The translations under genes and the position numbers were made by a program. Under the pieces are notes generated by a model. That model was not told the origin of the DNA. It did no database searches and worked only from the letters and a program-made list of their open reading frames with translations. From Candidatus Woesearchaeota archaeon (lineage in GTDB: Archaea > Nanobdellota > Nanobdellia > Woesearchaeales > GW2011-AR9): 64,000 bases of DNA. This document shows positions 3,266-34,640 of the stretch, in pieces. The stretch lies in the NCBI GenBank assembly GCA_018696595.1, contig JABHQW010000001.1:6223-70222 (forward strand), given 5' to 3'. Position 1 is the stretch's first letter, and each line of letters opens with the position of its first letter.

Positions 3266-3799
3266 ATGGCAACTAAAAAGAAAGATGACGGACATTTTTT
3301 TAACCATTCAAAGATATTAGAATTTAACATGAATGTGGATGCACAATTGATTACAAAATCTAATTTCATTTTTGGTGCAAGTACCTTAGTTTTGATGTTT
3401 GTTTTATACCAAGTATTTGCTGAAAAGTTAATATTAGATGGTTTGGCCAATAAATTACCTTGGTTAATATTAATTATTGGAAGTTTTACTGCTGCCTTGT
3501 TGTCAATGATGGTAATTATGCCAAAGATTTTTTTATTTTCTAAAAAAAAGAGAGTTAAAGAAGACATATTTTATTATAAGAATATCAACAAATTTTATTC
3601 TCGTGAGAAATATGCTGATTACCTCTATGATTTACCGCGTAATGAAAGAAAAGTTTCCGATGCATATGCACACCAAATTTATTCATTAGCTAACACGATC
3701 CTTCCGTTTAAATTTAAGATGATAAAAATATCTGGTTGGATGTTAACATTCTCAATCCTGTTAAGTATATTAACATACTTTGCAATGAGTTTATTTTAA
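3266..3799 (+). CDS. small membrane protein (2-4 TM helices)
   Basis: 177 aa; hydrophobic segments FIFGASTLVLMFVLYQVF, LPWLILIIGSFTAALLSMMVIM and C-terminal WMLTFSILLSILTYFAMSLF; BRE/TATA CGAAAGATTTAAATAA about 25 nt upstream. Confidence 0.4.
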   Translation: MATKKKDDGHFFNHSKILEFNMNVDAQLITKSNFIFGASTLVLMFVLYQVFAEKLILDGLANKLPWLILIIGSFTAALLSMMVIMPKIFLFSKKKRVKEDIFYYKNINKFYSREKYADYLYDLPRNERKVSDAYAHQIYSLANTILPFKFKMIKISGWMLTFSILLSILTYFAMSLF

Positions 3800-9692: not shown

Positions 9693-12011
9693 TTAAGTTC
9701 TACTAATTAAATCATGATTTGAAACGAAATGTCTTAGTCCCAAATAGGGTCTTACTGGTTTAGCTACTTGACTAACAGCAATAATTGAATTATCATAATA
9801 GAAAAAATCATTCTGCCAACCAATATTTTCCATCATGCTGTTAAATTTATCTTCATCTAAAGTACCTGAATCAATAACTAAAATAGCTTGAGCATTATGA
9901 TGGATTCCTTCATTCAAATCATGATCTTCCCTAAGTAAATAAAACGATTTCATTTTTTGTTCACTTTCATCAATAGTAATTAAAGGATCTCTTGCCAACA
10001 AATCACTGGGATATATTTGATAACGGTTAACAATACCTTTATTCAAAAATTCAATTGAAGAAGGTTGACAATAATAACTCAAATCTTTTCGTGAATCTCC
10101 TTCTGTGATTAACAAATCTGGTTTATTGGCATGTTTTCTTGCTTTAATCATCCATCTTTCTTCAGCCATTAAACTTTTTATCCAGGCAGAGGCCCTAGTA
10201 AATATATTTTGATCATAATGAGGGCCATATTTTCGCAGTGCAAAAATGTCTCTTTCCCGAGCGTACATTTCCCACATGTTCGGTTGGTTAAATGGAGTGC
10301 CACCAAACATAGTAAGCAAAATTTGTTGATCCATTAAATCACGAAGTTCTTTGAAGTGTTCTGGAGAGATTTTAGTAAGATCAATGTTAAGTGCTGGCGG
10401 CAAATCAGAAAGACCATAAAGCCCCTCTTGAACACAATGTAACAAAGCTAAATTTGTAACTTGTTCATTTCTGTCAATCAATAAAAGTTCTGCTTGACGA
10501 TTTTCTTTTTCTCTCAATTGTTTAACTAACAAACTTTCTTTTTTAGCCAAACCACAACCACCAGCAACAACTAAAATATCTTCTTCTAAATAATCTTTTT
10601 CTAATAAGAAATCAAGAAACCCTGTATATTTCTTATCCTCAAATTTCCGATCAACAACTTCTTGATAATTAGCAAAAGCATGATAAGTCGAATAAAGATT
10701 TGCTTGTAATGGTCTTAAATCCCAAACATGAGTTATTTCTGCACCGTACTCTACTTTAAGTTTCTTCCTTAACGAAGAATTGATTTTAGTGGGGCCTTTA
10801 CTTAAAATGTTATCAAGAATAGTTTTATTTTCCTGTTTCCTTTTAGAATAAACACTTAAACTTCCCAGCATCGAACCAAAATGTCGTTCATCTTCTCCAG
10901 AAAGTTTTTTCTCTAAAAATTTACAATAAAGGTTCATGAAAATAGTTAGACTGCCAATACCAACATCTTCAAAGATTCTGACATTTTTTTTAAATTCGTG
11001 TGCTTTTTCTGGACCTAAACTAAGAGCAATATCATGTTCCTTTTTACGAATATAGGGTTCAGGATCATCCAATTCTAAAAGATAAATTTTTTCGCTGGTT
11101 TCTTCAATTTCTCTGGCAAGACGTTCTTTCTCAGAAGCACGTAATTGCATTCTTTGATTGAGTTGTTTAACTGCCATTTCAGCAGTGGCAGGATATTGTT
11201 TATTTATCCCATCTAGGAAAGTGTTAACTTCTTTATTGTTAAAAAGGTGATAAGATTCAGAAATGGTCCTCATTAATCCTATTAAATGTTCAGCATCATT
11301 GATATTTCCAATAGCATCAGAAATAAAAGTTGTTAATGGTAGAGGCACATAACTTGGCAACTTTGCTAAAGCAGAAACAACTTCTGGATAAGTTCCCATG
11401 ACAAATTTTCTTCGAAATTGTTCCCATAACTGATAAGTATCTTGATTACCTTTTTCAACCACGCAACTTCGGTAAAGGTAAGCAGTCTTAGTAGCAATTT
11501 CTCCTAAATGAATAAACTGAGGTGGAAAGAGAGGATGTTTTAATTGTCCATTTATTTCTGTTAAAAATGATTGTACTCTTTCTGCATTTCCTTGGACGGT
11601 GACTGCTTTTTTTATTCCCTCTAATGAAGAACTTATATCTTTAACTAAAGAAACAGAATCATAATTTCCTTCTGGATTATCAACATCATGAACCCAAGAT
11701 AAAAAAATACCATAAGCCCAATCAACACTTTCTGCAAAATCATTTTTTAACCGTTCATAATCAGACAGCTGAATTGCCAAATCACTAATCGAAGAGAAAT
11801 ATTCTTTTTTGTTCTTCTTGGGGGGATGAGTCGCAGCATAATCTAATATTTGTAATAATTTGGGGTGTGGGTTTTCGGGAAGAGTTCTTGATAACCCCCA
11901 TAAAGAATTTAAAATGATTCCATCTAAACCTTCTTTTTCTTCCGGCTTATTTCCAGTTTTGTTTTTGAGTTTAGGAGTCATAGGAAAAGGATGAAAAATT
12001 CCACAATTCAC
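9693..12011 (-). CDS. large protein with C-terminal EgtD-like (Methyltransf_33) SAM methyltransferase domain
   Basis: 772 aa; C-terminal VVAGGCGLAKKESLLVKQL..LLLIDRNEQVT..ILLTMFGGTPFNQ matches the EgtD/OvoA-C methyltransferase pattern; the N-terminal ~450 aa have no recognisable domain. Confidence 0.45.
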   Translation of the reverse strand: MNCGIFHPFPMTPKLKNKTGNKPEEKEGLDGIILNSLWGLSRTLPENPHPKLLQILDYAATHPPKKNKKEYFSSISDLAIQLSDYERLKNDFAESVDWAYGIFLSWVHDVDNPEGNYDSVSLVKDISSSLEGIKKAVTVQGNAERVQSFLTEINGQLKHPLFPPQFIHLGEIATKTAYLYRSCVVEKGNQDTYQLWEQFRRKFVMGTYPEVVSALAKLPSYVPLPLTTFISDAIGNINDAEHLIGLMRTISESYHLFNNKEVNTFLDGINKQYPATAEMAVKQLNQRMQLRASEKERLAREIEETSEKIYLLELDDPEPYIRKKEHDIALSLGPEKAHEFKKNVRIFEDVGIGSLTIFMNLYCKFLEKKLSGEDERHFGSMLGSLSVYSKRKQENKTILDNILSKGPTKINSSLRKKLKVEYGAEITHVWDLRPLQANLYSTYHAFANYQEVVDRKFEDKKYTGFLDFLLEKDYLEEDILVVAGGCGLAKKESLLVKQLREKENRQAELLLIDRNEQVTNLALLHCVQEGLYGLSDLPPALNIDLTKISPEHFKELRDLMDQQILLTMFGGTPFNQPNMWEMYARERDIFALRKYGPHYDQNIFTRASAWIKSLMAEERWMIKARKHANKPDLLITEGDSRKDLSYYCQPSSIEFLNKGIVNRYQIYPSDLLARDPLITIDESEQKMKSFYLLREDHDLNEGIHHNAQAILVIDSGTLDEDKFNSMMENIGWQNDFFYYDNSIIAVSQVAKPVRPYLGLRHFVSNHDLISRT

Positions 12012-12416
12012 TAGACTAATCTTATTATCATCATTTATGATGAAGCATATTTTTGATGAGGAAACTTATTACAAGGGAAAGGAGAGTAAGATTTCTTTAA
12101 CCAAGTACGCATCTCTATTTGTTTGATCAATTCGCGATTAAGTTTTTTCTTCTTCATTTTTTCCACAAATTTTAAATATCAATATTGTTTTTAACCATTT
12201 AACCTTTAGCGAGGTTTTGTTAGGGGGAGGAACTTGTTTCTCCTTTCTAACTTTTTTCAACTGCAAAAGAAGTAACCAGTATTGCCACCCCTTCTACCCC
12301 ATTAAAATATAGTTTACTCGCTAATGTTTTGAGGTAAGTAAAACTAAGATATAAACTTACTTACAGATATTTTTATCAAAACGCCGAATCCAACTGATTT
12401 GTAGCGGAAAAGTAAA

Positions 12417-13514
12417 TTAAACATTAAATCCAACAAACTTCTTCTCTTCTTTAACACGATCATATAAATCAATTACCGCAATTAAATCTTTATCACGAAT
12501 CATCAGTTCCTCTTTACACATTGGCTTGCCCATTGCAGAAGATTGCATAAAATATTGGATTTGATTAAATGATGCTTGTTTCAGAACATTAGCAATGTCT
12601 GCACCAGTCATTCTACAAGCATACATCATTTCAGATAAACCTTCTGAATTAGTAAGTTGGTAAATTTCTCGGTTCGCTTTCTCTTCTTTCATTCTCATTT
12701 GTTTAACAAAGATATCTTCAACACCAGCTAAGTTGGGTTTAGGGATTTCAACAACATAATCAAATCTGCCTGCACGTAACAAAGCGTCATCAATCTTTTC
12801 TAAGTAATTAGTAGCGGCAACAAAAATTAGTCCCTCATTGTTGCCCATCCCATCCATTGTTCTTAACCAAACGTTCACACATCTGTCCACAACTTCATGA
12901 CCATTATGGCTGCCTTTCTTCCTAAACATTTGTTCTGCTTCATCAACAAACAACATTACCTTTCGTTCAGTTTGATGATATTTCTTTCTAGCAGAGTTAA
13001 TCGCAGCTTCCAGATTTTGTTCTGCCTCACCAACATACTTACTAATAATCAAACTCAAAGGCAATTCTAAAAACCAACATCCAAGTTCATTAGACATTGC
13101 TTTAGCAATCATAGTTTTCCCTGTTCCGGGAGGTCCGTACATTAACAACCCTTTCGGAGGATCAATCCCGTAGGAAGAGTAAGCGTAAGGGCAATCAATC
13201 CCATACTCAAAATGTTTGATCTTTTCTAAGACAGAATCTAAACCGCCAATATCAGAGTAAGAAGTTTCTTCTTGGCTTAAAGCGATTTTTAGTGAAGAAG
13301 GAGGATTAGATAATTGATGGATTTGTTTTTCATATTTCTCAATAATCTTTTTTTGTCCTTCAATAACTTGATCTTGGACATATAATCTATCAGCAATACT
13401 TTTAACAAACTGTTCTGCTTCCTCTTCCGAAATCTCTTCATCTTCTTCTATGATTAAATCTTCTAGATCTTCTTCATCTTCGTTCTCTTCCTTCTTCTTT
13501 TTTGGATCAACCAT
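12417..13514 (-). CDS. AAA+ ATPase (single classical AAA domain) with acidic N-terminus
   Basis: Walker A GPPGTGKT, Walker B LFVDEAE, second region of homology ATNYLEKIDDALLRAGRFD; 9 nt downstream of the nuclease gene. Confidence 0.75.
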   Translation of the reverse strand: MVDPKKKKEENEDEEDLEDLIIEEDEEISEEEAEQFVKSIADRLYVQDQVIEGQKKIIEKYEKQIHQLSNPPSSLKIALSQEETSYSDIGGLDSVLEKIKHFEYGIDCPYAYSSYGIDPPKGLLMYGPPGTGKTMIAKAMSNELGCWFLELPLSLIISKYVGEAEQNLEAAINSARKKYHQTERKVMLFVDEAEQMFRKKGSHNGHEVVDRCVNVWLRTMDGMGNNEGLIFVAATNYLEKIDDALLRAGRFDYVVEIPKPNLAGVEDIFVKQMRMKEEKANREIYQLTNSEGLSEMMYACRMTGADIANVLKQASFNQIQYFMQSSAMGKPMCKEELMIRDKDLIAVIDLYDRVKEEKKFVGFNV

Positions 13515-13523
13515 TTTCTAACT

Positions 13524-13841
13524 CTAATCTTTATGATAATGTATAGGTACAATTTTTTTCTCCTTACCAGAATAATAAAAAGTTCTAATTTCAGCACAAT
13601 CTCCAAGTAATAAATGAGCACGCTCCATTTGACTGACAGCTTTATCATAACCATCATTAGATTTTACTTCATAAATATCCCAACAGTCTCCATTAATCCC
13701 CACTAAATCTAACTCGCCAGCGTCGTTTCGAGAAGGAGGCATACGATAAACAACATTCTTCATTACAATTTGATACTGATCTCTAACCAAAAGTTCAAGT
13801 TCGTCTAATGCTTGATCGTGTTTATTTTTTCCGTGGCTCAT
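13524..13841 (-). CDS. Hjc/YraN-like PD-(D/E)xK endonuclease
   Basis: 105 aa; E...GELDLVG...(10)...YEVK matches the Hjc/UPF0102 catalytic pattern. Confidence 0.45.
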   Translation of the reverse strand: MSHGKNKHDQALDELELLVRDQYQIVMKNVVYRMPPSRNDAGELDLVGINGDCWDIYEVKSNDGYDKAVSQMERAHLLLGDCAEIRTFYYSGKEKKIVPIHYHKD

Positions 13842-13929
13842 TCTTCTTCACCGGTTTCTTTCTCTTTTCCTCTTCATAAGGAGGCAGGTGGTCGTACCAT
13901 TGCAACCATTTTTTTCTTCGTCTCATTTT

Positions 13930-14139
13930 TTAATGATCATTCTCCAGATATTTTTTTGCTGAAAAGATGTACACCTTGCCATTAGGAAAATATTGACACC
14001 CTTTCTCCTCACTGAAAAGATAAGTTGTAAACTCATCATAACCAAAAGGAACATCCATTTCTCCCAGTTCAGTTTTTACGGGAACGTTCAGGTAATGAAA
14101 TTCTTCAACGACTTCTTGCAAAGATTTGTATTCAACCAT
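13930..14139 (-). CDS. hypothetical small protein
   Basis: 69 aa ORF inside the co-directional gene string. Confidence 0.3.
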   Translation of the reverse strand: MVEYKSLQEVVEEFHYLNVPVKTELGEMDVPFGYDEFTTYLFSEEKGCQYFPNGKVYIFSAKKYLENDH

Positions 14140-14387
14140 TATTGATCACCACAAAAATAGATGTCGTGTTCTTTTGTGCGGACGTAAAAACACCCAAAGA
14201 GATCATTCAATTTTTCATCTGAACATCCACAATAGACCTTACGCCCTTCTTTCTTCTTAATTACCAAGTTGCATTGTTCAGAAATTTCAGGATAAGCAAG
14301 ATCGCACAAATTCAAAGTTTTTTTCTCACTACAACCAACTAAGGATAATGCCAATGTAAGTCCAACAATTAATTTGTTCAGACTCAT
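14139..14387 (-). CDS. small Cys-rich lipoprotein/secreted protein
   Basis: Signal peptide MSLNKLIVGLTLALSLVGC followed by several Cys; overlaps its neighbours by 1-4 nt. Confidence 0.4.
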   Translation of the reverse strand: MSLNKLIVGLTLALSLVGCSEKKTLNLCDLAYPEISEQCNLVIKKKEGRKVYCGCSDEKLNDLFGCFYVRTKEHDIYFCGDQ

Positions 14388-15202
14388 AGGCTCACCCGAA
14401 TTTCATGTTTTGTCCCATCTAATTTCAAAAGTGGACTACCTTTTCTCATCGGCTCTAAAGATTTCATGTGTGCATAACTACCCCAATGATTCAAATAAGA
14501 CCCAGTAAGAATGAAATGTTTCTGCGCCTCGATAACTTTCTTGTTTCTTAAATCTGCAGAATAAAAATTCTTCACATGATGACTTAGTTGATGTAAATGA
14601 CCCATGGCGTAAACTTCTGCCTCTGCTAAGTTTGCCAGATCAATAACACCTTTTATTTTTGTATGTGGCATTCTTGCTCCGGAAGCGCCGTGAGTAGTGT
14701 ACAAGGTATATCCTTGTTTTCCCACCAAGAAATAATGCATTTTTCCCCAACCAAAGTAAGGAACGTCTAACTGTTTAGCCATGATTTTAGAAAGATTTAA
14801 TCCCGCCTGATTGTAAACACGATTCTCATGATTACCAGGATGTAATCCTAGAATTAATCCATTATCTGCTAATGGTTTGTATATTCCCAAAAAGTGATCT
14901 AATTGTTGTTCTAATATTTCATCTTGTTCATACACCCCAGCACCAACAGAATCACGCGTAGCAGTTTCTAATTGGTCACCCATTAGAATTATTGGAATCT
15001 CTTTCTCATAACAATGTTCCAACACTTCTTTATGCATATCAGCATCATAATATCTTGACCCGATATGTTCGTCACCAATTAACATCACACTTAATTTTTC
15101 AACATCAAACTTGCGATAATTTAACGTCGGCTTTAATTCATTTTTTGCAGCAGCTTTTTTCATTGATTCCCATTCGGAAATCTTATCTGATAGTTCACCC
15201 AT
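14384..15202 (-). CDS. calcineurin-like metallophosphoesterase
   Basis: LIGDEHIGS (GDxHG), LMGDQLE, GNHE and GHLH motifs. Confidence 0.65.
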   Translation of the reverse strand: MGELSDKISEWESMKKAAAKNELKPTLNYRKFDVEKLSVMLIGDEHIGSRYYDADMHKEVLEHCYEKEIPIILMGDQLETATRDSVGAGVYEQDEILEQQLDHFLGIYKPLADNGLILGLHPGNHENRVYNQAGLNLSKIMAKQLDVPYFGWGKMHYFLVGKQGYTLYTTHGASGARMPHTKIKGVIDLANLAEAEVYAMGHLHQLSHHVKNFYSADLRNKKVIEAQKHFILTGSYLNHWGSYAHMKSLEPMRKGSPLLKLDGTKHEIRVSL

Positions 15203-15223
15203 TTTTCACCACCTCTAGCGAGT

Positions 15224-15469
15224 TTATTCATTCTTCCAATTCTTAATCACATTGTACGGCCACTTTGATTGTAGTTCTTCCATCAATTCACGGTAATGTG
15301 TTATAACCCCACAATCATTGCACGCATATTCGTAACGAAAATTATATTCTCCTGATTCGTTTCTTTTCTGCCCTAGATATTCAATGTTACCCTCACATTC
15401 ACGACAACTAAGATCGTAAAATGTAGGAAAATCAATCAATTGTTGCTCAAATTTTTTGTCAAGAGTCAT
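15224..15469 (-). CDS. zinc-ribbon protein
   Basis: 81 aa with CRECEG...CNDCG paired CxxC. Confidence 0.45.
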   Translation of the reverse strand: MTLDKKFEQQLIDFPTFYDLSCRECEGNIEYLGQKRNESGEYNFRYEYACNDCGVITHYRELMEELQSKWPYNVIKNWKNE

Positions 15470-15518
15470 TTTCCTTTAGCGAGTTTAAATTGTCCTGCCA
15501 TATTGACAAGACCATTCT

Positions 15519-16403
15519 TTACATTCTACATTCTTCAAAATGGTCATCAATATTCATTATCACATAATCAGTAATTTCACAAATAATTTTTGAGTCCATA
15601 GCGATAGCTAGTCCTGAATTCTCCCGATGAAAAGGGCCACCAGCATTGTGAATTAAGTAAGCGCTGATGATTCCAGCCCAATACAATTGATCGTCTTTTT
15701 TAACAAAGAGAGCCCCACCAGAATTTCCAGGGTTAGCAGTGAGATCCAATATCTTTCTTGAAGAGTTTGGTACAGTAATACCATTTACTTTATCTTCAAA
15801 TTCATAATGAAACGGATAGTTACCCGGATTAGCGACTATACCTCCCGTAGTTGCAGGAAACATTCCTAAAGGATATCCGACCAGATAAACTTCTTCACCA
15901 TACCTTAGATCTGAACTTAGTTGAAGATTATTCTCGGGAAGAAAGTTTAGTCTTTGATCCGTTCTTAGAATGGCTAAGTCCAATTCCTCAGATTCAAAAA
16001 CAATTTCTAAAGGGATGTCATCATCTTTATTATTGTCAAACTTCGAATCAATAATTTTAATATCAACTTTAGTTCGATCATATTTAGTTCCATTAACGTT
16101 CTGTTCAAAACCCCCAACAACATGTTGATTAGTAATTAAGTAAGAGTAACCATCAACGTCACGATAAGCAAAACTAGAACCATATCCTCCGGCGTTGAAT
16201 GTGTTTCCAGCCTGATCCTGATATTCTCTTTCTGAAAGTAAACAGTATGTGGAAGAGATTAAATCATCTAATGTAACTTCTTTTTCTGAGATTTCATGAG
16301 TGGCGCCATAGTTATTAATGGGAACATGTTGCATTGGCACACAAGCTGTTCCTGTTCCCACCAATAATGTTGCGGCTGCAATTAAGTTAACAAGTTTATT
16401 CAT
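15519..16403 (-). CDS. secreted trypsin-like (S1/HtrA-like) serine protease
   Basis: Signal peptide, His block TNQHVV, Asp in LDLAIL, GNSGGALF catalytic Ser motif. Confidence 0.7.
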   Translation of the reverse strand: MNKLVNLIAAATLLVGTGTACVPMQHVPINNYGATHEISEKEVTLDDLISSTYCLLSEREYQDQAGNTFNAGGYGSSFAYRDVDGYSYLITNQHVVGGFEQNVNGTKYDRTKVDIKIIDSKFDNNKDDDIPLEIVFESEELDLAILRTDQRLNFLPENNLQLSSDLRYGEEVYLVGYPLGMFPATTGGIVANPGNYPFHYEFEDKVNGITVPNSSRKILDLTANPGNSGGALFVKKDDQLYWAGIISAYLIHNAGGPFHRENSGLAIAMDSKIICEITDYVIMNIDDHFEECRM

Positions 16404-16453
16404 TCATATCACCTTTAGCGAGTTTTTTTGATTCTCAAAAATGGAAATGGTTT

Positions 16454-16523
16454 GTATACGGGGCACGGCGGACATCGTACTCCCTTAGAGTACCCGCCTC
16501 AGCAAGCTAGGGCCCCCGTATAC
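16454..16523. other. GC-rich nested stem-loop element (possible small ncRNA or operon-internal processing/terminator structure)
   Basis: GUAUACGGGG...CCCCGUAUAC 10-bp outer stem enclosing GGCGG/CCGCC and GUACUC-CCUUA-GAGUAC hairpins; T-tracts on both sides; GC about 60% against about 30% background. Confidence 0.4.
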
Positions 16524-16581
16524 AACTAACACCCATTTTTTGATTTGATTTTAATGGTGGATTAACATCCAAACTTTAGTT

Positions 16582-17100
16582 TTAATCAGTTTCATTCTTA
16601 TTCAGGATCCCCACCAGTCCACGGTATTGTGGATCATCGTTTTCTTTTTTTGAACGTAAAATGTTGGAGAGGGTGGAAGAATAACAAGCAGTAGCTAAAC
16701 CGGCCATAACTGTGCCCATCTGATTATCACCAAGAAAATAATATCCTGCTGAAAGACAAGCCGCCAGTGTTCCGGCTACTGGTTGAAACTTCTTGATAAC
16801 TTCCACGGAATCTTGGTTAGAATATCTGTCACCCATAATTGCACTCATTCCGGAAACAGCTAAACCCAATCCCAAAAAAATGTTGTAGGGAAAAGTTTCA
16901 CAGGCAGCTAAAGCAACTGTAAATCCCCCAGCAGCAGCAAGATCTGAATAGACTGCTAATCGTTCATACTTTCTATCTTGGACAGCTGTAATTTCTTCTA
17001 AGGAAACAAGCTCCTCTTTTTTATCTGGTTTTTCTTTCCACCCCAATTTCCAAATAGAACTTCCCCTTTTAGCGAGATTTTGATGAGGAAGCACCCTCAT
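16582..17100 (-). CDS. membrane protein with glycine-zipper helices
   Basis: 172 aa; AAAGGFTVALAAC, GLGLAVSGMSAIMG, AGTLAACLSAGYYFLG hydrophobic Gly-rich segments. Confidence 0.4.
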   Translation of the reverse strand: MRVLPHQNLAKRGSSIWKLGWKEKPDKKEELVSLEEITAVQDRKYERLAVYSDLAAAGGFTVALAACETFPYNIFLGLGLAVSGMSAIMGDRYSNQDSVEVIKKFQPVAGTLAACLSAGYYFLGDNQMGTVMAGLATACYSSTLSNILRSKKENDDPQYRGLVGILNKNETD

Positions 17101-17286
17101 TTTTTTTGTTTACACTTCTGACTTACATTAATGTGAATAGTGTAATATAATGATAAACATGTCGAGAAGATTTTTTATCGATTTGCAGTTTTAAGTTTGA
17201 GAAAGTTTTGCTAGAATAATTCTTAGTTATAAAATGCTAAACATAATTGAGAAAAAAGTTTCTTAATAAAATGAAAGAAAAAAATA

Positions 17287-18048
17287 CTAATTTTTTACAA
17301 AGATATATCTGTCAGCTACTCTTCTATCAGGCATACCTTCTCGCATTACTTCTCTATATGCTGCCCATTTTTTTTCAAATGAATCATTTGGATCTGCTCT
17401 TAGAACACCTTGATCAACATACGAAAGAACTAGATCCCTAGTAAATTTAAATTCAGTTGGTTTTAGTCTTTCAAATTCAGCAGCGTCTTTCATAGGTTGA
17501 AATAAATCTTCTAAATTTCTAGAAACGACAACCCTATTATCATTCTTTCTTCGATCTTTTTCAACAAAATCTATTGATCCCCATAAGGTAAACTGGTTAG
17601 GTTGTTCGTACATTTCAGATGCATTCCCGTGATAATCATTTGCCAAAATATATCCTCCAGGTTTTAAATGTCTAGAAGCCCATTCTGTTGGAATTGCCGG
17701 ATTTAATAAAATCAATAAATCATGTAAATCTTGAGGAGAATATGTTTTAATATCTTGCTTTAATGCTTGAAATCCTGCTTCTTGAAGTTTTTTTACACAA
17801 CCTTCACTTCCTTTCTCAATGTCTACAAAGGTAACATCATCAAAAACTTTTACAGGACTTGCATCAAATCCACAAGAAGGATATAAAACAGATTGAGGAT
17901 TAAAAACTTGATTACAAAAAGCAGTATATATTGTTATCAGATCATCTGAAAAGTATATTTGAGGTTCTTCTCTAGGGGTATCATCATTATCTGCAGGAAA
18001 TTCAAAATCATCTGGAAATCCTTCAAAGTCATCATTATTATCTGTCAT
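17287..18048 (-). CDS. class I SAM-dependent methyltransferase-like protein with acidic N-terminus
   Basis: LYPSCGFDASP (motif I-like), VDIE, LILLNP, LKPGGYIL. Confidence 0.4.
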   Translation of the reverse strand: MTDNNDDFEGFPDDFEFPADNDDTPREEPQIYFSDDLITIYTAFCNQVFNPQSVLYPSCGFDASPVKVFDDVTFVDIEKGSEGCVKKLQEAGFQALKQDIKTYSPQDLHDLLILLNPAIPTEWASRHLKPGGYILANDYHGNASEMYEQPNQFTLWGSIDFVEKDRRKNDNRVVVSRNLEDLFQPMKDAAEFERLKPTEFKFTRDLVLSYVDQGVLRADPNDSFEKKWAAYREVMREGMPDRRVADRYIFVKN

Positions 18049-18657: not shown

Positions 18658-19125
18658 TTTTTTCGTGGGGCTGAATGAGCTTGTGAATGAACGCCGTACA
18701 TCGCTCCCAGTTCGCGAAAGAACTGTTAGAGGAATTTGAAAGTCAAACTTTCTAAGTAAGATTAAAGAGATAATTATTACTGCCACCGAAAACATCAATC
18801 CAAATATTAATAAGAAATTCCAAATCCAAGAAGAAGTGGTTTCTGTTAATACTAAAATCAAACTAATGATAAAAATAATTGATTGAGTTATTAAATAAAA
18901 ATAAGGCAAAGCATGTGCCAGGTCATCAACTCTATGATGGTGGAAAAAAGAAATTGCTTGAATATTAAATACATAGAATAGAATTATCAAAACAATCATT
19001 CCGTGAGTTAACAGATTATCTACTCGAAACAATCCCAATAAATTATCAAGAATTCCTAAGATACCAAAGGTTAGGGCTAAGTATAAATAGATTCTAAGGA
19101 AACCTCTTTTTGATGTTGTTGCCAA
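18640..19125 (-). CDS. membrane protein (4 predicted TM helices)
   Basis: 161 aa, strongly hydrophobic helices; start 84 nt downstream of the minus-strand structured RNA locus. Confidence 0.45.
   Translation of the reverse strand: MATTSKRGFLRIYLYLALTFGILGILDNLLGLFRVDNLLTHGMIVLIILFYVFNIQAISFFHHHRVDDLAHALPYFYLITQSIIFIISLILVLTETTSSWIWNFLLIFGLMFSVAVIIISLILLRKFDFQIPLTVLSRTGSDVRRSFTSSFSPTKKLERKE
18685..18730 (+). other. second copy of the L7Ae-leader-like motif (CGCUCCCAGUUCGCGAAA.AACUG..AGAGG)
   Basis: About 30-nt near-identity to the minus-strand L7Ae 5' leader; preceded by GGCUGAAUGAGC (C-box-like); lies in the convergent 3' region of two genes. Confidence 0.4.
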
Positions 19126-19208: not shown

Positions 19209-19439
19209 GTGGGCCTACAGGGACTTTCAAATCTCCAGGAAGATTTGTAGTCTCCTAAAGGATATTTGAACCCTGATCAACCGGTATCAACCCAAACTCT
19301 TCTTAAATAATTTGACTGCAGGGAAAATCCTGTTTTGATCAAACTTTTTTTAAAAATTTGGTCCGAAGCCGGCCGCACTTTTTGGCTAGCGCCTAAACTT
19401 TGTCTGACGCCAAGTATCCAGGTTATGCTATAGGCCCAC
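19209..19439 (-). ncRNA. structured ncRNA candidate A (paralog of 25459-25610), family unassigned
   Basis: 12-bp terminal helix GUGGGCCUAUAG/CUGUAGGCCCAC; 5' hairpin UUGGCG..CGCUAG; conserved 3' module GGUUCAAAUAUCC..GGAGACUA-CAAAUCU-UCCUGG-AGAUUUG-AAAGUCC; TATA CTTTAAAAATA about 25 nt upstream; UUUAUUAU after the 3' helix. Confidence 0.5.
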
Positions 19440-20349: not shown

Positions 20350-20372
20350 CTTTTTTCTTTTGTTACTCTAAA

Positions 20373-20400
20373 GTAATGAAATAAACGAAAGATTTATAAA
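20373..20400 (+). promoter_or_regulatory. BRE/TATA promoter GTAATGAAATAAACGAAAGATTTATAAA
   Basis: CGAAAG (BRE-like) abutting TTTATAAA; about 50 nt upstream of ATG 20451; near-identical copy at 25631-25658. Confidence 0.55.
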
Positions 20401-25458: not shown

Positions 25459-25610
25459 GCCAGCGTCGCATAATCCGGTATTGCGCTGGTCTTGAAACCT
25501 TTGGTTTTGACCTAATACCAGATAACCAGTTCCTTTTGGAATTCCCGGTTCAAATATCCCCCAGGGAGACTACAAATCTTCCTGAAGATTTGAAAGTCCG
25601 GGCGCTGGCG
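25459..25610 (+). ncRNA. structured ncRNA candidate B (paralog of 19209-19439)
   Basis: TATA TTTTATAAA 25425-25433 about 26 nt upstream; terminal pairing GCCAGCG/CGCUGGC; 5' hairpin CCAGCG..CGCUGG; conserved 3' module GGUUCAAAUAUCC..GGAGACUA-CAAAUCU-UCCUGA-AGAUUUG-AAAGUCC; followed by UUUUAUU. Confidence 0.5.
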
Positions 25611-25630
25611 CTTTTATTCTTCACTCAATA

Positions 25631-25658
25631 GTGATAAAATAAACGAAAGGTTTATAAA
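25631..25658 (+). promoter_or_regulatory. BRE/TATA promoter GTGATAAAATAAACGAAAGGTTTATAAA driving the Fic gene
   Basis: Matches 20373-20400 in 24 of 28 positions; TATA ends 22 nt before ATG 25681, consistent with a leaderless mRNA. Confidence 0.55.
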
Positions 25659-34570: not shown

Positions 34571-34640
34571 TTTATTTGTCCTCTCAGTTATTTCGCGAAC
34601 TGGGAGCGAGGTGCGACACATGAAAATTAACAAAGATTAA
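34571..34640 (-). promoter_or_regulatory. L7Ae mRNA leader with K-turn (C/D-box-like) element, putative autoregulatory site
   Basis: mRNA reads ..GUCGCACCUCGCUCCCAGUUCGCGAAAUAACUGAGAGGACAAAUAAAAUGGCUGAUGAAGC: CUGA (D-like) upstream and GCUGAUGA (C-like) spanning codons 2-4; GC-rich in an AT-rich genome. Confidence 0.45.

Follow-up and report, generated by a model that had tools for sequence, protein, structure and literature searches.

A virus-related gene cluster of marine Woesearchaeota with a private, conserved sequence element at its start codons

Why should one gene cluster in an archaeal chromosome carry the same short sequence directly upstream of several of its start codons? The question is raised by a stretch of 64,000 nucleotides from Candidatus Woesearchaeota archaeon (assembly GCA_018696595.1, contig JABHQW010000001.1, positions 6,223 to 70,222; hereafter the window, to which coordinates without a locus name refer). 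Here, a tightly packed set of minus-strand genes encodes a small hydrophobic protein (TM154), an exported protease, a putative zinc ribbon (ZnR81), a metallophosphoesterase (MPP272), a predicted nuclease (nuc105) and an AAA ATPase (AAA365). The repeated sequence is here called Element A. Of several possible explanations for this arrangement we favour, tentatively and at somewhat less than an even chance, a domesticated viral module with a private operator that overlaps the Shine-Dalgarno (SD) sequence and through which its genes are regulated jointly at the level of RNA.

A repeated element at the start codons of one gene cluster

Element A, (A)AACTCGCTARAGG, was searched for in the 64-kb window and in the flanks (about 20 kb) of the related loci. 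The window contains five copies on the same strand, confined to 12203-17079. Three match the pattern AAACTCGCTARAGG exactly (15212-15225, 15473-15486 and 16412-16425, minus strand) and two are degenerate (12203-12216 with one mismatch and 17066-17079 with two, also minus strand), in agreement with the initial annotation, which had described one element in three spacers together with two further copies. Five matches were reached in none of 100 dinucleotide shuffles (mean 0.77), and the core CTCGCTA[AG]A does not recur in that context elsewhere in the 64 kb.

All copies are in the sense orientation, at distances of 0-19 nt from a start codon. Copy 1 (17063..17079; AATCTCGCTAAAAGGGG) belongs to TM154. 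The true start of this gene is TTG 17046 rather than ATG 17100, as indicated by frame-breaking indels between strains and by the gene calls in two related loci (L002, L004), and the copy at 17066-17079 therefore also lies 5' of a start codon and not inside the gene. It is flanked by CTTCC and GGAAG, which are able to pair. Copy 2 (16412..16425; AAACTCGCTAAAGG followed by TGAT, which would complete the SD sequence) precedes the ATG of the protease gene, and copy 3 (15473..15486; AAACTCGCTAAAGG followed by AAAATG), retained even in the distant locus L017, precedes that of ZnR81. Copy 4 (15212..15225; AAACTCGCTAGAGG followed by TGGTG), which exists in some strains only, overlaps the ZnR81 stop codon 5' of the MPP ATG. 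The fifth copy (12203-12216) lies in the spacer between AAA365 and the gene p772, where it precedes a mini-open reading frame (mini-ORF) of 2-8 codons that is no real gene (MVKNNIDI, MV or MG followed by a stop; 12157-12200 in the window, and in L011, L013 and L015). The element stands before the start codon of a gene in four copies but not in this one. All five are on the minus strand.

Two types of start site are found in the window. First genes carry TTTATAAA at -31 to -24, and leaderless transcripts are therefore indicated; about one third of all genes have this box, ending about 25 nt before the ATG. In genes inside operons, a GGAGG/GAGGTG box stands 6-10 nt before the start. The 3' end of Element A, AGG(TGAT), resembles these boxes, the comparison being with the boxes of the window and not with 16S rRNA. 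The CTCGCTA half is absent from the SD sequences used elsewhere in the window. To judge from these comparisons, the AGG(TGAT) end would be an ordinary SD sequence and the CTCGCTA half the unusual part.

In some 15 related genomes (MPP identity of 90% or more), the cluster is found in a single chromosomal slot, in the order TM154-protease-ZnR-MPP-(lipo82)-p69-p34-nuc105-AAA-spacer-(p40)-p772. Every locus of this window clade has CTCGCTAAAGG in four orthologous slots, namely before TM154, the protease gene and ZnR81 and after the AAA gene; the fifth slot, before the MPP gene, is occupied in some strains only. In motif-anchored comparisons of 7-8 distinct sequences, the 11 motif columns have a mean pairwise identity of 0.98-1.00 in the four slots, and the 20 nt upstream of the motif one of 0.39-0.55 in three slots (1.00 versus 0.51 in the slot of copy 2). 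Silent sites are saturated in the same genomes, the number of synonymous substitutions per site (dS) being at least 1.

The motif also follows the genes when these are rearranged. In L017 (MPP 72% identical, GC 45%), TM154, the protease, MPP, nuc105 and the AAA ATPase are retained with different small genes interposed; there are three motif copies, and the motif is the sole 10-mer present at least three times there (in AT-rich DNA, a k-mer repeat survey of all loci was otherwise too noisy). L084 has the order protease-nuc105-AAA, and CTCGCTAAAATG stands between the protease and nuclease genes, abutting the nuclease ATG. In L016 the motif, again CTCGCTAAAATG, abuts the MPP ATG. As it is invariant at saturated divergence and follows gene rearrangements, there is strong evidence for a sequence-specific function of the motif. 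The conserved 11-base signal points to a dedicated, previously undescribed control element.

The motif is missing from 767 kb of viral loci bearing the MPP gene, including the regions upstream of the viral MPP genes, and scans of IMG/VR returned singleton background matches that were not accompanied by cluster proteins and never formed a repeat. Literature and library searches found no description of the module or of the motif, and Rfam holds no family for the motif, for the spacer RNA or for a GC-rich hairpin described below (window at gathering threshold; 12000-17300 at E <=1). An integron attC array was considered and rejected, as there is no integrase in the window flanks and Element A has no inverted repeat.

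Proteins of the cluster and their viral relatives

The window (GC about 33%) comes from a lineage of marine Woesearchaeota (DPANN archaea). Related genomes were obtained from Saanich Inlet and other marine samples, and GCA_018656325.1 and several ENA and JGI assemblies carry an identical locus. The housekeeping neighbours are archaeal (a proteasome subunit, aCPSF1, ArgRS and TrmB/AsnC regulators), and the slot between the aCPSF1/proteasome and AsnC/ArgRS genes is conserved in relatives, on contigs of up to 613 kb. The 13 kb from the AsnC-type regulator to the proteasome gene are strain-variable and almost devoid of family matches.

Eight co-directional, tightly packed genes had been described by the initial annotation. 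Orientation and packing are as stated, but there are nine ORFs when a conserved one of 34 codons is counted. Spacers measure 3-49 nt (protease-ZnR81, 49 nt; ZnR81-MPP272, 21 nt; p69-p34, 3 nt; nuc105-AAA365, 9 nt) and overlaps 1-20 nt (MPP272/lipo82, 4 nt; lipo82/p69, 1 nt; p34/nuc105, 20 nt). The genes stay together in the approximately 15 related genomes and, in other arrangements, at more distant loci such as L018, where the AAA-nuc105 pair lies about 8 kb from protease-MPP-p772; the possibility that the neighbourhood is not conserved, raised by the initial annotation itself, is thus not borne out. Beyond what had been described, the module has counterparts in tailed viruses, the motif is conserved across species, and the cluster extends upstream to TM154 and downstream to the AAA-p772 spacer.

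TM154 (16582..17046, minus strand, as are all genes that follow) is the first gene of the conserved cluster and encodes a small Gly/Ala-rich hydrophobic protein of 154 aa. It has no family matches in Pfam, PADLOC, PHROGs or NCBIfam, and no transmembrane segment was predicted when its hydropathy was scanned in a simple way with a strict threshold; from its composition it is probably a membrane protein. The protease (15519..16403; 294 aa) has a lipoprotein signal (..GTGTAC), matches Trypsin_2 at 4e-15 and shows the H/D/S triad in TNQHV, DLAIL and GNSGG, as in trypsin-like proteases of the S1/HtrA type; a PDZ domain was not found. The earlier description as a secreted trypsin-like enzyme is thereby upheld. 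To regard TM154 and the protease as a holin-endolysin-like pair is speculation. ZnR81 (15224..15469) is an 81-aa protein with 66-80% identity within the window clade. Its CxxC...CxxC arrangement is as first described, but matches to zinc-ribbon families are weak and it is best called a putative zinc ribbon.

MPP272 (14384..15202) was likewise named correctly as a calcineurin-like phosphoesterase, and it is cytoplasmic. All five metallophosphoesterase (MPP) motifs are present (GDEHIG, MGDQLE, GNHENR, THGAS and GHLHQ), and D44, H46, D76, N124, H125, H171, H202 and H204 are invariant across 19 homologues. The protein matches the family phrog_7339 over its full length at 3e-38, with a further match to phrog_221; there is no Pfam or NCBIfam match at E <=0.1, and hence none to a curated MPP model. 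The AlphaFold2 (AF2) model has a pLDDT of 82.5, and the 20 Foldseek matches at E <=0.001 are all of the MPP fold, the nearest being the PolD DP1 exonuclease, Mre11, LpxH and Rv0805. By its motifs and its predicted beta-sandwich fold the protein belongs to the calcineurin-like MPP superfamily. Mre11/SbcD and PolD DP1 are the best neighbours of the model (Foldseek E 7e-7 to 1e-4) and share all metal-binding motifs, but TM-scores are 0.45-0.57 at 11-16% identity and no polymerase subunit is encoded nearby. Nor does the cluster contain a Rad50/SbcC partner as in Mre11-Rad50 or SbcCD, its sole ATPase being a classic AAA protein. A PDB sequence search gave marginal results (NucS, E 0.86; SbcD, E 0.1).

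Three small genes follow. The lipoprotein gene lipo82 (14139..14387; ..LVGC) is a variable accessory gene present in some strains only; p69 (13930..14139) encodes a conserved 69-aa protein with a ratio of nonsynonymous to synonymous substitution rates (dN/dS) of 0.03-0.10; and p34 (13822..13926), which overlaps the nuclease start, is a very basic 34-aa ORF with 64-91% identity by tblastn that annotation pipelines leave uncalled.

In nuc105 (13524..13841), four residues (D45, E58, K60 and Q71) never vary and E16 hardly does. The AF2 model (pLDDT 80.5) has the topology H-E-E-E-H-E, and the top Foldseek/PDB neighbours are all PD-(D/E)xK nucleases (cap-snatching endonucleases, R2 endonuclease, Cas4, Can2 and AddAB). 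The model thus predicts a minimal PD-(D/E)xK nuclease. This part of the initial annotation stands, but the likeness to Hjc or YraN does not: there is no match to PF01870 (Hjc), YraN models reach E 0.03 and Hjc (2wiw) ranks 40th with a TMq of 0.47. A recognisable housekeeping Hjc was rejected on the missing profile match and this fold rank.

AAA365 (12417..13514) is a single-domain, classic-clade AAA ATPase (PF00004 at 9e-33) with Walker A GPPGTGKT, Walker B DEAE (in VDEAE), the pore loop YVG (in KYVGE) and RAGRFD, with the arginine fingers, in the second region of homology. The acidic stretch, reported as a tail, is in fact N-terminal; a coiled coil leads directly into the AAA domain and the C-terminus (..FVGFNV) is without HbYX. 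PAN was rejected as an identification, as the AAA domain alone is matched (153 bits against a cut-off of 500) and there is no OB domain. The viral family phrog_3757 is matched nearly end to end at 4e-40. Downstream of the spacer are p40 (12035-12157), a 40-aa ORF of some lineages, and p772 (9693-12011), which is syntenic with the cluster even at the distant locus L018 (as the p40/p772 region, 9693..12157).

The dN/dS ratio is 0.11-0.16 for TM154 and 0.03-0.16 over all core genes, at dS of at least 1, and the ORFs are intact in all genomes. The core genes are under strong purifying selection, and for this reason we regard them as functional and not as prophage debris.

Combinations of nuclease, ATPase and protease are typical of defence systems, and the initial annotation had hinted at such a role. 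The cluster could serve anti-virus defence or superinfection exclusion, with the AAA ATPase as sensor or motor, the MPP and the PD-(D/E)xK nuclease as effectors alongside the protease, and the motif silencing the system until infection; viruses would then carry the cassette for competition and hosts for immunity. Accessory genes are modular and variable, the region is strain-variable and the cassette is movable, standing in differing places in viral genomes. PADLOC matched the AAA protein (IetA, 9e-28; TRIP13) and the protease (LmuA-protease and RT-protease, 8e-14). These matches are generic, however: the NCBIfam IteA model reaches 84 bits where its cut-off demands 510 and is outscored by CDC48 and PAN, and PADLOC gave no match for the MPP, nuc105, ZnR81 or the remaining cluster proteins. 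The closest parallel is IetAS, with an AAA ATPase and a serine protease in one cluster, but the protease here is trypsin-like and not subtilisin-like, and the two genes are not adjacent. As the protease is exported, judging from its lipobox, it could not partner a cytoplasmic ATPase in the way that IetS is thought to. For Lamassu, PADLOC found the generic LmuA-protease match and neither LmuB nor LmuC. The fixed slot and the strong purifying selection throughout the lineage are also unlike patchy defence islands. We consider a defence role unlikely.

The MPP family has 195 detectable homologues, and these lead to viruses. It is encoded by 44 IMG/VR loci (up to 60% identity) and by another virus-like contig (68%). 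Annotated phage records show tblastn identities of 23-38%; the carriers are the Bacillus phages Slash, Stahl and Staley (Slashvirus) and viruses of Moorella, Marinitoga, Methanobacteriales and Methanofastidiosa, and the gene lies near replication or packaging genes, at the border of these modules. Contexts typical of tailed viruses include baseplate J with a sheath initiator, and portal/MuF with an SU10-type capsid protein; others are Mu F, and PolB and RecU with a tail tube. Parts of the cluster recur in these genomes. In L031 the order is MPP, exported protease, AAA (phrog_3757), a 156-aa protein, TerL, portal and major capsid protein (MCP); in L085 it is portal/MuF, MPP, an 80-aa protein, protease and, further on, MCP. 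L073 has the MPP gene beside a homologue of nuc105 (34% identity), followed further on by TerL-like, portal and MCP genes, and L075 has MPP, RNA ligase, a 157-aa protein and AAA. The viral proteases carry Tat-like or lipoprotein signals. In tailed archaeal viruses, the MPP with a neighbouring protease, AAA ATPase or nuclease thus forms an accessory cassette next to terminase, portal or capsid genes.

Phage members of phrog_7339 ("DNA repair exonuclease") share with MPP272 the full-length profile match and, in contigs with tailed-virus hallmarks, up to 68% identity. In the window clade, by contrast, the gene is chromosomal, vertically kept and accompanied by protease, nuclease and AAA genes, with the private motif upstream in some strains. 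The literature yielded no member of this family with a tested function.

In a neighbour-joining tree of the MPPs (100 bootstraps), the window-type chromosomal sequences are nested among viral ones. L021 and L022, two loci of distant Woesearchaeota with a second type of cluster, are joined by the IMG/VR contig L044 in 93 of 100 bootstraps, and an exclusive grouping of the two chromosomal cluster types was obtained in 0 of 100. These groupings imply at least two exchanges between virus and host.

Separately, in two IMG/VR loci (L042:5639-7453 and L043:8768-10582) a protease gene is immediately followed by an ORF of about 600 aa whose C-terminal part is the MPP; this would be a fused form of the MPP.

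Given these affinities of the MPP and AAA proteins, and a surrounding 13 kb that are strain-variable and poor in family matches, the locus might be taken for a decaying prophage remnant or a chance neighbourhood, with the motif an extended SD sequence spread by local duplication. Against this stand the purifying selection and the intact ORFs, the occupation of the same slot in all relatives, the CTCGCTA half that lies outside SD sequences elsewhere in the window, and the invariance of the motif at saturated divergence. PHROGs, Pfam, NCBIfam and PADLOC revealed no capsid, portal, terminase or integrase in 9.7-22.5 kb, and a tRNA scan of the window found none; there are thus no hallmark genes or tRNA of an integrated provirus, and direct or attachment-site (att)-type border repeats were not specifically sought. 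Among the largest repeat families listed, two repeats (35 nt, 19221-19255/25565-25599; 31 nt, 18695-18725/34585-34615) each have one arm within 9.7-22.5 kb. Remnant and chance are largely refuted, and we give them hardly any credence. Both a prophage and a known defence system were dropped as readings because the cluster neighbours include no viral hallmark, integrase or defence model.

Possible modes of action of the element

The spacer between AAA365 and p772 (400 nt) is conserved far above other intergenic DNA, and its part at 12168..12360 (minus strand) is a candidate structured RNA. It contains, in this order, a TATA-like TTTATATC (12348-12355), about 25 nt later an anti-motif, two conserved hairpins, motif copy 5, the mini-ORF and ATTTAAAATTT. 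The anti-motif, ATTAGCGAG at about 12316-12326 (given also as TTAGCGAG), occupies one of two alternative positions, depending on the species. In the RNAalifold prediction it pairs, as UUUAGCG(A/G)GG, with CCUCGCUAAA to form a closing helix. The prediction is suggestive of a conserved structured RNA in which the motif is paired with the anti-motif.

A second private element was found in a different lineage. L021 and L022 are chromosomes of distant Woesearchaeota (contigs of 250 and 636 kb; MPP 57-60% identical). Besides the MPP, their compact clusters encode a trypsin-like protease that is exported, a small protein rich in Cys, a protein of some 105-110 aa bearing the signature PD...EVK and, in L021 alone, an AAA ATPase. 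The ORFs scanned in the two loci included no integrase. Each cluster has four sense-strand copies of a 13-nt Element B, GCAGACTTCCAAC (GCAGACTTCCA(A/C)), confined to the cluster (L021:8972-13660; L022:8572-12830), one of them behind the last gene. Each of the eight is displayed in the loop of a hairpin, and the stem sequence differs between copies; for seven of the eight, an equally good fold is reached by at most 5% of flank shuffles. This hairpin form suggests that what is recognised is a folded single strand. The same layout with another sequence suggests that the chromosomal versions of the cluster have a dedicated cis-element by design.

Is Element A then read in DNA or in RNA? It could be a DNA operator or promoter-proximal element for a cluster transcription factor (AsnC-type or zinc ribbon), each motif-bearing gene having a weak promoter of its own. 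Binding immediately downstream of the TATA box is common among archaeal repressors. An AsnC-type regulator gene always adjoins p772, a motif-like TTCGCTAAAGGG precedes an AsnC/Lrp-like gene in L017, and A/T-rich runs (ATATAA, TTTAAA) abut several copies. These runs were tried as promoters and rejected, as the leaderless geometry of TTTATAAA, 25 nt and ATG would need them about 6 nt further from the start codon, and a simple regular-expression scan of the coding strand found no TATA-like box within 12417-17100. Moreover, the site is asymmetric and strictly sense-strand, one copy, in a spacer of 21 nt, extends over the stop codon of the gene before it, and the hairpins of Element B, with their variable stems, fit a folded single strand better than a duplex. 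A DNA operator is therefore improbable in our view.

An RNA-level operator is favoured because the copies are all sense-strand and overlap the putative SD sequence, because copy 4 spans a stop codon, because there are no internal TATA-like boxes, and because an anti-motif is present and Element B is a hairpin. What is seen is the arrangement of an RNA-level operator regulon, that is, a repeated sense-strand motif that overlaps the ribosome-binding site (RBS) of several genes and is conserved beyond its flanks. From sequence, we infer that the element acts on RNA, and likewise the identity of its binder and the biochemistry of the module.

On this preferred account, a lineage of marine Woesearchaeota would have fixed a virus-related module in its chromosome, where selection maintains it. 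The module would consist of an envelope pair (the small membrane protein and the lipid-anchored trypsin-like protease), of the small zinc-ribbon protein, and of a nucleic-acid-processing part with the Mre11/PolD-DP1-like MPP, the minimal PD-(D/E)xK nuclease and an AAA unfoldase. The genes would probably be transcribed into one or few polycistronic transcripts, each translational unit (TM154, protease, ZnR81 and sometimes MPP) being headed by the private 11-nt CUCGCUAAAGG, whose 3' half would be the SD sequence. A trans-acting factor would bind the element and control ribosome access or transcript fate, so that one factor could switch the envelope genes (TM154 and protease) and the block from ZnR81 and MPP to the AAA gene together. 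A cluster protein, for example ZnR81, is a candidate for the binder. Alternatively, the factor may be the anti-motif RNA from the AAA-p772 spacer, acting by pairing or as a decoy with its own motif copy. As for the role of the module, our guess is that it processes DNA ends and branches or degrades nucleic acids, in conjunction with an exported protease that would act on a protein cell envelope.

A different RNA-level explanation is an endonucleolytic processing site just upstream of each RBS, which would yield mRNAs of different stability. RNA processing sites of methanogens cluster just upstream of the RBS or start codon, in 5' untranslated regions and in intergenic regions of operons, at the short, degenerate motif UNMND|NUNAY (PMC5499594). 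Element A similarly stands directly 5' of the putative SD sequence in a single-stranded, A-rich context, and the best structural neighbours of nuc105 are RNA endonucleases, the bunyavirus cap-snatching enzymes. The likeness to the sites of Methanolobus psychrophilus thus extends to their position in polycistrons and to their single-stranded, A/U-rich context, but those sites are genome-wide and degenerate (PMC5499594), in contrast to an exact, invariant 11-mer that is private to one cluster. The likeness of nuc105 is that of a generic minimal fold (TM-score about 0.65 at 12-18% identity), and the copy after the AAA gene is predicted to be base-paired. We consider a processing site quite unlikely, and less probable than a DNA operator.

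For an RNA-level operator of the kind that we prefer, the best known parallels are the translational-operator regulons of phage T4 RegA and of CsrA/RsmA, the latter with CsrB-type decoy RNAs. They share with Element A a short sense motif that overlaps several RBSs, and the spacer RNA could be a decoy. Here, however, the putative operator is an invariant 11-mer private to one archaeal cluster, and there is one decoy copy, predicted to be paired with the anti-motif, unlike in CsrB-type RNAs.

Several observations weigh against this account. Apart from the TM154 slot, there is no shared secondary structure or inverted repeat around the copies of Element A. In the anti-motif helix a single pair changes on both sides and covariation is nearly absent, as the sequences are too similar, and in the window itself the aligned anti-motif position is mismatched, so that the other position is needed. 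ZnR81 is missing from L017, L084 and L016 although the motif is kept. A syntenic AsnC-type gene encodes a double helix-turn-helix protein, and a DNA-binding regulator with an asymmetric site is conceivable. The scan for TATA-like boxes was simple, and the regulon may extend beyond the DNA that was searched. Regarding the viral origin, monophyly of the window-type MPPs has 45% bootstrap support, and the viral status of L044 is without backing from hallmark genes. Finally, the PD...EVK and Cys-rich proteins of L021 and L022 have no detectable sequence homology to nuc105 and ZnR81, so that the components common to both cluster types are limited to MPP, protease and AAA ATPase.

A bolder version would be that Woesearchaeota, and perhaps other DPANN archaea, have repeatedly taken up the cassette from tailed viruses or exchanged it with them, each time placing it under a private RNA switch. 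In one lineage this would be the 11-nt operator with an anti-motif small RNA, in the other the 13-nt sequence displayed in a hairpin loop. We think this improbable, to about the same degree as the defence role. If true, it would imply a new conflict or host-interaction system, for example one of envelope breach with processing of foreign nucleic acid, and the first cluster-specific post-transcriptional regulons described in DPANN archaea.

To our knowledge, gene regulation in DPANN archaea, which are mostly uncultured, is essentially unknown. An invariant 11-base element confined to one cluster is a clean regulatory signal in this group, and analogous clusters with another private element suggest that the design is general. 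Through its gene content, the cluster also connects host chromosomes with an accessory cassette that is widespread among tailed archaeal viruses, and an explanation of either would provide hundreds of genes, viral and cellular, with an annotation. Should the exported protease act on protein envelopes, this could bear on the exit of archaeal tailed viruses or on the attack of DPANN archaea on their hosts.

Repeats and other features of the window

In this strain only, the spacer between TM154 and the protease gene contains a GC-rich hairpin insert (16451..16535; closing stem GTATACGGGG...CCCCGTATAC) that is outside the conserved system. It is about 85 nt long, with about 60% GC in a genome of 33% GC, has no Rfam match and is missing in L011 and L013. 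In the same spacer, L010 has an element (L010:160-245) with the same terminal stem, an inverted orientation and a different interior. An unrelated GC-rich hairpin insert of about 100 nt lies in the AAA-p772 spacer of L015 (L015:2937-3040). Such inserts could be small mobile or invertible structured elements.

Of the other repeats, a 35-nt inverted repeat (19221-19255 / 25565-25599; 97% complementary) is located in two intergenic regions 6.3 kb apart. It brackets the genes from p216 to aCPSF1, each arm being partly palindromic, and may be a shared terminator or a recombination site. A 47-nt direct repeat (20354-20400 / 25612-25658; 79% identity), which terminates with AAACGAAAG(A/G)TTTATAAA, precedes two operons of the plus strand and looks like a promoter region (B recognition element and TATA box, BRE-TATA) that they share. 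The GC-rich sequence CAGTT.TTTCGCGAACTGGGAGCGA, 31 nt long, occurs in inverted copies at 18695-18725 / 34585-34615 (90% identity), in or beside small ORFs.

Nearer the start of the window, a 48-nt direct repeat (1346-1393 / 2092-2139; 85% identity) provides the common leader caatataacatacagggggtga of two adjacent minus-strand genes, 968-1345 and 1388-2101. Close by, at 3266-3799 on the plus strand, a 177-aa protein matches PF18967 (PycTM, the Pycsar effector transmembrane domain) in precomputed annotation, and its gene adjoins that of a TrmB-family regulator.

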